Source: a virus
Lineage: Duplodnaviria; Caudoviricetes
Length of the DNA: 64,000 nucleotides
IMG/VR virus record: IMGVR_UViG_3300032093_000005
Strand: one strand, 5' to 3'
The notes under the pieces were generated by a model. That model was not told where the DNA came from, made no database searches, and was given only the letters and a program-made list of their open reading frames with translations. The position numbers were made by a program, and so were the translations under genes. Positions within the stretch are counted from its first letter, which is position 1. Each line of letters begins with the position of its first letter. This document shows positions 44,220-44,448 of this stretch, in pieces.

Positions 44220-44248
44220 ATTATAGGGTATCTAGGGCAGTTTGTCAA
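44220..44248 (-). promoter_or_regulatory. Consensus sigma70 promoter
   Basis: TTGACA-N17-TATAAT. Confidence 0.85.
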
Positions 44249-44448
44249 TCTTTGTTTTTTCTATCATACTGATGCCACTTGCACCAACCATCGGCAGCAA
44301 TCTTTCCTTTTACTGCGGTACAGGCATTCGGTGGTCTCCACATATTACAATTGGAGCACTTCTCATTGCCCTTCGGATGATTTTGATATTTTGCTGTTTC
44401 CTTAGAAGACTTTTCTTCTTCTGCTATAAACTCTTGATAGGATTTCAT
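44245..44448 (-). CDS. HiPIP-like 4Fe-4S protein with capsid-targeting N-terminus
   Basis: MKSYQEFIAE + AKYQNHPKGNEKCSNCNMW..NACTAVKGKIAADGWCKW (four Cys in HiPIP spacing, GWC motif). Confidence 0.8.
   Translation of the reverse strand: MKSYQEFIAEEEKSSKETAKYQNHPKGNEKCSNCNMWRPPNACTAVKGKIAADGWCKWHQYDRKNKD

Follow-up and report, generated by a model that had tools for sequence, protein, structure and literature searches.

Does a tailed phage pack an iron-sulfur redox protein into its head and deliver it to the host together with the genome? This question is raised by a small gene, the product of which combines a HiPIP-like domain with a leader of the type that targets internal proteins to the capsid of phage T4. 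The window analysed here, i.e., the whole stretch of 64,000 nt, lies within a 96-kb IMG/VR fragment of a freshwater cyanobacterial virus that is about 41% complete and has a GC content of 36%. The gene and its parts were located as follows:

44245..44448, minus strand: leader-HiPIP gene, stop codon included, encoding 67 aa (from the list of open reading frames).
44419..44448, minus strand: T4-type capsid-targeting leader MKSYQEFIAE, codons 1-10, with 9 of 10 residues as in T4 IPII/IPIII.
44248..44418, minus strand: predicted mature protein, 57 aa, with a computed size of 6.6 kDa and pI of 9.2.
Residues 12-60 of the 67-aa protein, minus strand: PioC-like HiPIP core (Pfam, PDB profile, AF2 and Foldseek).
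44356-44358 (C31), 44347-44349 (C34), 44320-44322 (C43) and 44281-44283 (C56), minus strand: codons of the predicted cysteine ligands.

The nearest ortholog in an isolate was QPX48026.1 (88% identity), annotated as hypothetical in its record. It is encoded by S-SRM01, a freshwater Synechococcus myovirus of the Kyanoviridae; among isolate phages, no other homolog was found. Close homologs formed 18 clusters in a large protein collection, mostly of metagenomic origin; PHROGs held no family for the 67-aa protein, and no isolate phage was matched when 3 kb of sequence around the gene were searched by megablast. In the comparison with the S-SRM01 ortholog, dN/dS was 0.04 with saturated dS, and the open reading frame was therefore regarded as a genuine gene under purifying selection. 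It is surrounded by small open reading frames of early-looking or accessory type.

The domain was characterized by sequence and by predicted structure. The four-cysteine HiPIP signature that an earlier note had read from the letters was recovered with the search proposed there: HMMER against PF01355 gave 24.2 bits for residues 13-57, above the cut-off of 22, and the search of the genome returned the same match. The family profile searched against the PDB matched PioC of Rhodopseudomonas palustris (6XYV) with an E value of 2.7e-13, followed by other HiPIPs, and the pairwise alignment with PioC showed 38% identity over 48 residues, with no gaps and the four cysteines in register. Within an alignment of 133 phage and cellular sequences Y21, C31 and C34 were invariant, and P25, P40, C43, V46, G48, G54, W55 and C56 were conserved in at least 90%. 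These positions include the cluster ligands and the cluster-shielding residues of HiPIPs; the aromatic and hydrophobic shield of the cluster is retained.

The AF2 model based on the 133 sequences, which replaced one obtained from 15 close homologs with a pLDDT of 52, had an overall pLDDT of 85.5 and values of 88-96 across the HiPIP domain (residues 11-60). The best 18 matches of this model in the PDB, as determined with Foldseek, were all HiPIPs, with 6XYV in first place (TM 0.79, rmsd 1.4 Å). By sequence, profile and predicted fold, residues 12-60 are a mini-HiPIP of the PioC type. From the sequence we infer that the 67-aa protein binds a [4Fe-4S] cluster, AF2 being unable to distinguish Fe-S from Zn at a Cys4 site.

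A twin-arginine signal and a periplasmic location are typical of cellular HiPIPs, although they do not define the fold. An exhaustive profile search recovered 2099 proteins (E up to 0.001). Among the 165 best representatives, 59 were cellular relatives with a twin-arginine leader, in agreement with the earlier remark that cellular HiPIPs carry a Tat signal; 42 were short and leaderless, 29 had a CTS-like leader and 18 were long and multidomain. Neither an RR motif nor a hydrophobic h-region was detected in the 67-aa protein. The domain tree, with 49 columns and few supported branches, shows the clustering of phage types and not the origin or direction of transfer: most Tat forms were placed in one part of it, with weak resolution, and a group of 96 rows (SH-aLRT 92) contained nearly all of the leaderless, leader-bearing and multidomain forms.

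The leader was compared with those of the T4 internal proteins. The products of ipII and ipIII of T4 (NC_000866) both begin with MKTYQEFIAEA, and the leader of the window differs from them at residue 3 alone (T3S), which is the single mismatch to the T4 tag noticed before. A review of T4 head assembly (PMC9026906), which covers the work of Mullaney and Black (1996) on the capsid-targeting sequence of the T4 internal proteins, assigns targeting mainly to residues 4 and 7 and processing to residues 8 and 10. A survey of homologs, which the earlier note had recommended, showed that the tag is kept at these four positions in nearly all of them: position 4 is F or Y, position 7 is always F, position 8 is L, I or M, and position 10 is nearly always E. 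The leader carries an I-x-E cleavage site with a predicted cut after Glu10 (I-A-E|E), and in the AF2 model it forms a separate short helix of low confidence.

A degenerate DNA pattern of the leader matched the starts of four open reading frames in S-SRM01 and three in T4. The control with the reversed pattern gave none, so that the leader is not due to chance. Besides ipII and ipIII, the only T4 open reading frame matching the strict leader pattern was gp61.1 (NC_000866, 18966-19130, minus strand; L020:667-831), a hypothetical protein of 54 aa encoded upstream of the primase gene and starting with MKTFKEFIKE. To our knowledge, neither packaging nor the status of a head protein has been reported for gp61.1, and its CTS-like start indicates that the leader motif alone does not prove packaging.

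On the 96-kb contig, five open reading frames begin with the leader. Three of the five are grouped at one place:

25178..26351, minus strand: three tandem leader-bearing genes (68, 97 and 216 aa), starting with MKTFAQFLE, MKTFSQFMSE and MKTFSEFIAE.

These three genes indicate that the leader is a reused module in the window phage. Motifs CTAAATA and ATAAATA are located 16-21 nt upstream of two of them, and the 216-aa protein had no Pfam family and no homolog in isolate phages. The other leader bearers of S-SRM01 are a 103-aa open reading frame adjoining the structural module, a 'cytidyltransferase' and a basic low-complexity protein of 448 aa. The latter, QPX48235.1 (MW015081.1, 176324-177667; L011:12325-13668), starts with MKSFSQFLEE and is rich in Ala, Gly, Pro and Lys, a composition resembling that of head proteins which are internal or associated with DNA. 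On a metagenomic T4-like contig of 50 kb (L005, 7682-8195), the HiPIP gene is immediately preceded by a gene for 111 aa, the product of which begins with MKTFQEFISEA; as the two genes adjoin, they form a tagged tandem like that of ipIII and ipII in T4.

A link between this type of leader and virions is provided by the cyanophage cytidyltransferase. The core cyanophage cytidylyltransferase T4-GC190 was detected in purified virions of S-SM1 (Sullivan et al. 2010, PMC3037559), a homolog is present in S-CREM2 virions, and cytidyltransferases are often seen in virion proteomes of cyanophages (2023 study, PMC10665884). The N-terminus of the S-SM1 enzyme is MKKFSAFLNEAE, and the corresponding starts are MKKFSAFLTEAE in S-RIM8, MKKFSDFLSEAA in ACG-2014d, MKLFNQFFKEAE in S-CRM01 and MKNFHQFITEAT in S-SRM01. 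The leader of the HiPIP type, as MKKFSAFLNEAE or a close variant, is thereby present on this virion-detected protein in five cyanophages. The literature search found no paper tying a capsid-targeting sequence to virions in cyanophages.

Genes for gp21, gp23 and the cytidyltransferase were not found on the 96-kb fragment (about 41% complete), and S-SRM01 was for this reason used as a stand-in. Its major capsid protein gp23 contains FLSE|A at residues 51-55, which corresponds in position to the T4 gp23 cleavage site FLTE|A, and the same EFLSE closes the consensus leader of the HiPIP family. The same phage encodes a Peptidase_S77 protein, i.e., a gp21-type prohead protease, with a score of 127 bits (QPX48181.1; MW015081.1, 135233-135883; L010:10734-11384). 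The label 'primosomal protein' in the record of QPX48181.1 is a mis-annotation.

The surroundings of the gene were examined for signs of the timing of its expression, and the following features were identified upstream of it:

45365..45372, minus strand: late-promoter-like motif AATAAATA, about 27 nt upstream of the 107-aa gene.
45020..45343, minus strand: conserved cyanomyovirus gene of 107 aa (PHROG 507).
44950..44957, minus strand: T4 late-promoter-like motif TATAAATA, 30 nt upstream of the HNH start.
44452..44925, minus strand: HNH homing-endonuclease gene (PHROG HNH families, E 5e-36).

The PHROG-507 gene was found by tblastn in 461 cyanophage records. In S-SRM01 and in the metagenomic contig L003, the start of the HiPIP gene overlaps the stop of this gene, of 106-107 aa, and the HNH gene is missing at the junction. 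The HNH gene of the window ends 3 nt before the start codon of the HiPIP gene, which has no promoter of its own. The inserted cassette at 44452-45019, comprising the HNH gene and a TATAAATA that belongs to it, is placed precisely at the PHROG-507/HiPIP overlap, and the old overlapping ATG has been left in the window as a remnant just past the PHROG-507 stop codon.

The position of the motif upstream of the 107-aa gene is kept, as AATAAATA in S-SRM01 and as CTAAATA in L003, and in both a Shine-Dalgarno sequence follows it before the PHROG-507 gene begins; the layout in the window is identical. Motifs of the form NATAAATA are located 26-30 nt upstream of both the 107-aa/HiPIP unit and the HNH gene, with no overall enrichment; for TATAAATA, three were counted in the window and 5.3 were expected, and because of this late timing is proposed here rather than claimed. 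The motifs upstream of the 107-aa and HNH genes fit T4-type late promoters, and that at 44950..44957 may drive a transcript of the HNH and HiPIP genes.

The distribution of the domain over other phage proteins was also determined. That HiPIP-like domains may occur in such proteins had been suspected, and fusions were indeed found with Phage_Mu_F, Caudovirus prohead protease S78, DUF2213, the InPase of polyvalent proteins, Nudix, and LysM with GH19. Foldseek against viral models identified prohead protease, XkdF, SppA, zeta-toxin, ParB/Srx, HAD and helicase as HiPIP partners in uncultured phages. Many of the partners either take part in head assembly or are effector modules of a kind typically delivered by capsids, and these domain fusions are the strongest support for packaging in the head. 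Many phage HiPIPs on high-GC contigs had no leader at all. The leaderless short forms were located on short contigs, the only neighbour that served to place them being a phage-like DNA polymerase, and the neighbours of relatives such as that on L007 are genes for a 2OG-Fe(II) oxygenase, a peroxiredoxin and an AhpD-like protein.

A second leader was observed in P0028, P0033, P0034, P0035, P0041, P0045, P0053 and P0070, in which the 8-residue sequence M-[KR]-[IL]-x-[DE]-L-x-E stands directly before the HiPIP domain. In this architecture the domain is followed by GGAYGK[HR]GK and then by a C-terminal part that varies between the proteins and reaches about 560 residues; in P0034 it comprises LysM plus glycoside hydrolase 19. 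The second leader and the HiPIP domain together look like a common N-terminal module with varied cargo.

The cytidyltransferase and the HiPIP were found together in two further arrangements. Three proteins of 1126-1573 aa (P0055, P0056 and P0059) begin with a cytidyltransferase-like domain and contain a HiPIP domain internally. In P0055, the one of the three compared directly, the cytidyltransferase-like domain shows 30% identity to the enzyme of S-SRM01 (E 7e-22). On two contigs (L018:2-454 and L006:2-367), HiPIP proteins with the M-[KR]-[IL]-x-[DE]-L-x-E leader are encoded two genes downstream of a cytidyltransferase gene. Fusion, gene neighbourhood and the leader shared in cyanophages suggest that the HiPIP and the virion cytidyltransferase may act together.

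On the basis of the leader, the protease and its site, the promoter-like motifs and the domain fusions, we infer that the 67-aa protein is packaged in the head. The earlier proposal that it is packed there has gained a leader shared with a virion-detected protein, the gp21-type protease and gp23 site of S-SRM01, the late-promoter-like motif and the fusions to head proteins, lines that are independent of one another but indirect. The roles suggested in the same note (electron rerouting, iron carriage and protection of DNA) are speculative. The reading that we prefer as a whole, and hold to be probable with some reserve, is that the protein would be expressed late, packaged, cleaved and injected.

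According to this reading, the precursor would consist of a 10-residue leader of the T4 type and a 57-residue basic PioC-like HiPIP with one oxygen-tolerant [4Fe-4S] cluster. Its gene would be read late, as the second in a unit behind a late-type promoter. Cellular HiPIPs acquire their cluster in the cytoplasm before they are exported by Tat as folded proteins; the phage precursor would likewise fold and take up its cluster in the cytoplasm. The leader would then direct the folded protein to the prohead's scaffolding core, where cleavage after Glu10 by the gp21-type protease would take place, at a site of the same type as the FLSE|A of gp23, and the mature protein of 6.6 kDa would be retained in the head with the DNA. 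Judging from the T4 internal proteins and the dimensions of the tail tube, this size is small enough for ejection with DNA, and the mature HiPIP would leave through the tail with the genome. Once injected, it would represent a ready-made high-potential one-electron centre, or an iron-sulfur store, before phage genes are expressed. HiPIPs are unusually air-stable Fe-S proteins, which would explain the presence of a HiPIP, and not of a ferredoxin, in particles that survive in oxygenated water. Against this reading, one-electron carriers numbering between a few tens and some hundreds in each particle would have no obvious catalytic effect without a partner.

The best surviving alternative, rather unlikely in our estimation, is that the protein stays out of the particle and serves a phage or host redox enzyme in the cytoplasm during infection, as a redox auxiliary, the N-terminal helix being a translation or folding feature shared by small cyanophage proteins. 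The ferredoxin and plastocyanin genes of phages are precedents for such helpers; however, a high-potential carrier would be fully reduced and idle in the cytoplasm, the known partners of HiPIPs being lumenal or periplasmic. The location amid small accessory open reading frames, and that of the L007 relatives near the oxygenase, peroxiredoxin and AhpD-like genes, would suit an auxiliary role, whereas the repeated fusion of the domain to head-assembly proteins would not. Similarly, the leaderless state of many phage HiPIPs in high-GC contigs and the leader motif on T4 gp61.1, which is not known as a head protein, have to be set against a leader that retains exactly the targeting and cleavage residues of T4 and is common to the virion-detected cytidyltransferase.

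Decidedly improbable is a packaged structural or DNA-binding mini-domain with no redox role, in which Zn or an Fe-S cluster acting as a staple would occupy the Cys4 knot and the basic 57-aa protein would behave like the T4 internal proteins, as a DNA binder or as an inhibitor of a host nuclease. The joint conservation of the cysteines with invariant Tyr21 and with Trp55, Pro25, Pro40 and Gly54 (at least 90%) across phage and cellular members argues against it, as does the identity of 38% to PioC, a HiPIP with a proven [4Fe-4S] cluster, even though the mature part is basic (pI 9.2) like the T4 internal proteins and a small N-terminal or internal module found beside many unrelated effector domains fits a carrier or a staple. 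Finally, a chance open reading frame or decaying gene fragment at 44245-44448, suggested by the shortness of the frame, a strand dense in small open reading frames and the absence of a PHROGs family, is effectively refuted by the dN/dS of 0.04 with saturated dS, the 18 close homolog clusters, more than 2000 profile matches, the PF01355 score above the cut-off and the confident fold model.

The packaged-HiPIP reading can also be extended beyond this gene, although the extension is doubtful enough to be offered as a possibility: PioC-like HiPIPs would be a widespread, undescribed cargo of the capsid interior of tailed phages, carried by the capsid-targeting sequence in T4-like phages and by fusions to MuF, prohead proteases or polyvalent proteins elsewhere, and would act after ejection as redox or iron-sulfur effectors. 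The HiPIP would have been chosen as the one Fe-S fold that survives air in the free virion, and after ejection it would work with co-packaged nucleotide-handling enzymes, e.g., the virion cytidyltransferase.

Taken singly, HiPIPs and the capsid-targeting sequence of T4 are well known; their combination, and the presence of HiPIPs on phage head proteins, are absent from searchable papers. A literature search for HiPIPs in phages found no paper, and the paper on polyvalent proteins (PMC5512222) makes no mention of HiPIP or Fe-S domains. The view expressed in the earlier note, that this form had not been described, holds for such papers and has to be qualified for databases, since in UniProt the ortholog of S-SRM01 bears the automatic label of a HiPIP-profile protein. 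The internal proteins of the head enter the cell ahead of all other phage proteins, and those known to date either counter restriction or modify enzymes. If the packaged reading is true, an Fe-S redox protein would bring a new kind of chemistry to this group, phage heads would contain structural iron, with a bearing on estimates of iron in aquatic virus particles, and the T4 capsid-targeting code would work from coliphages to cyanophages, so that injected cargo could be predicted from sequence. As S-SRM01 is cultured and its ortholog is 88% identical, the idea is directly testable.

Among known systems, the closest in fold is PioC (R. palustris TIE-1, 6XYV), a 54-residue HiPIP of the photoferrotrophy pio operon, with short kin in R. 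tenuis (1ISU) and R. marinus (3H31). The phage protein and PioC share the domain length, the C-x2-C-x8-C-x12-C spacing, the Tyr, the GWC and the Pro residues. PioC has a twin-arginine signal and is located in the periplasm of an iron-oxidising phototroph, whereas the phage protein has no Tat signal, bears a T4-type leader and is more basic.

With IPI, IPII and IPIII of T4 the phage protein shares a small size and a basic character, and with IPII and IPIII 9 of the 10 leader residues, including residues 4, 7, 8 and 10. The occurrence of several mutually unrelated leader-bearing genes per genome, some of them in tandem, is also common to both. The mature parts of the T4 proteins are unrelated to the phage HiPIP, which has a predicted cofactor-binding redox fold, and the residue after the cut is Ala in the T4 internal proteins and gp23 but Glu, by prediction, in the phage HiPIP.

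The cyanophage cytidyltransferase (T4-GC190; SSM1_190 of S-SM1 and ORF154 of S-CREM2) has a leader of the same type, MKKFSAFLNE-A, belongs to the same Kyanoviridae and has been detected in virions. It differs in its nucleotidyltransferase fold with a HIGH motif and in being core to cyanomyoviruses, whereas the HiPIP was found, among isolates, in S-SRM01 alone. Polyvalent and head-fused effectors (Iyer et al. 2017, PMC5512222) are resembled by those relatives in which the HiPIP stands beside MuF, InPase, zeta-toxin, ParB/Srx, Nudix or prohead proteases. The HiPIP of the window differs from polyvalent proteins in that it is stand-alone, and its delivery would be by the leader and not by fusion.
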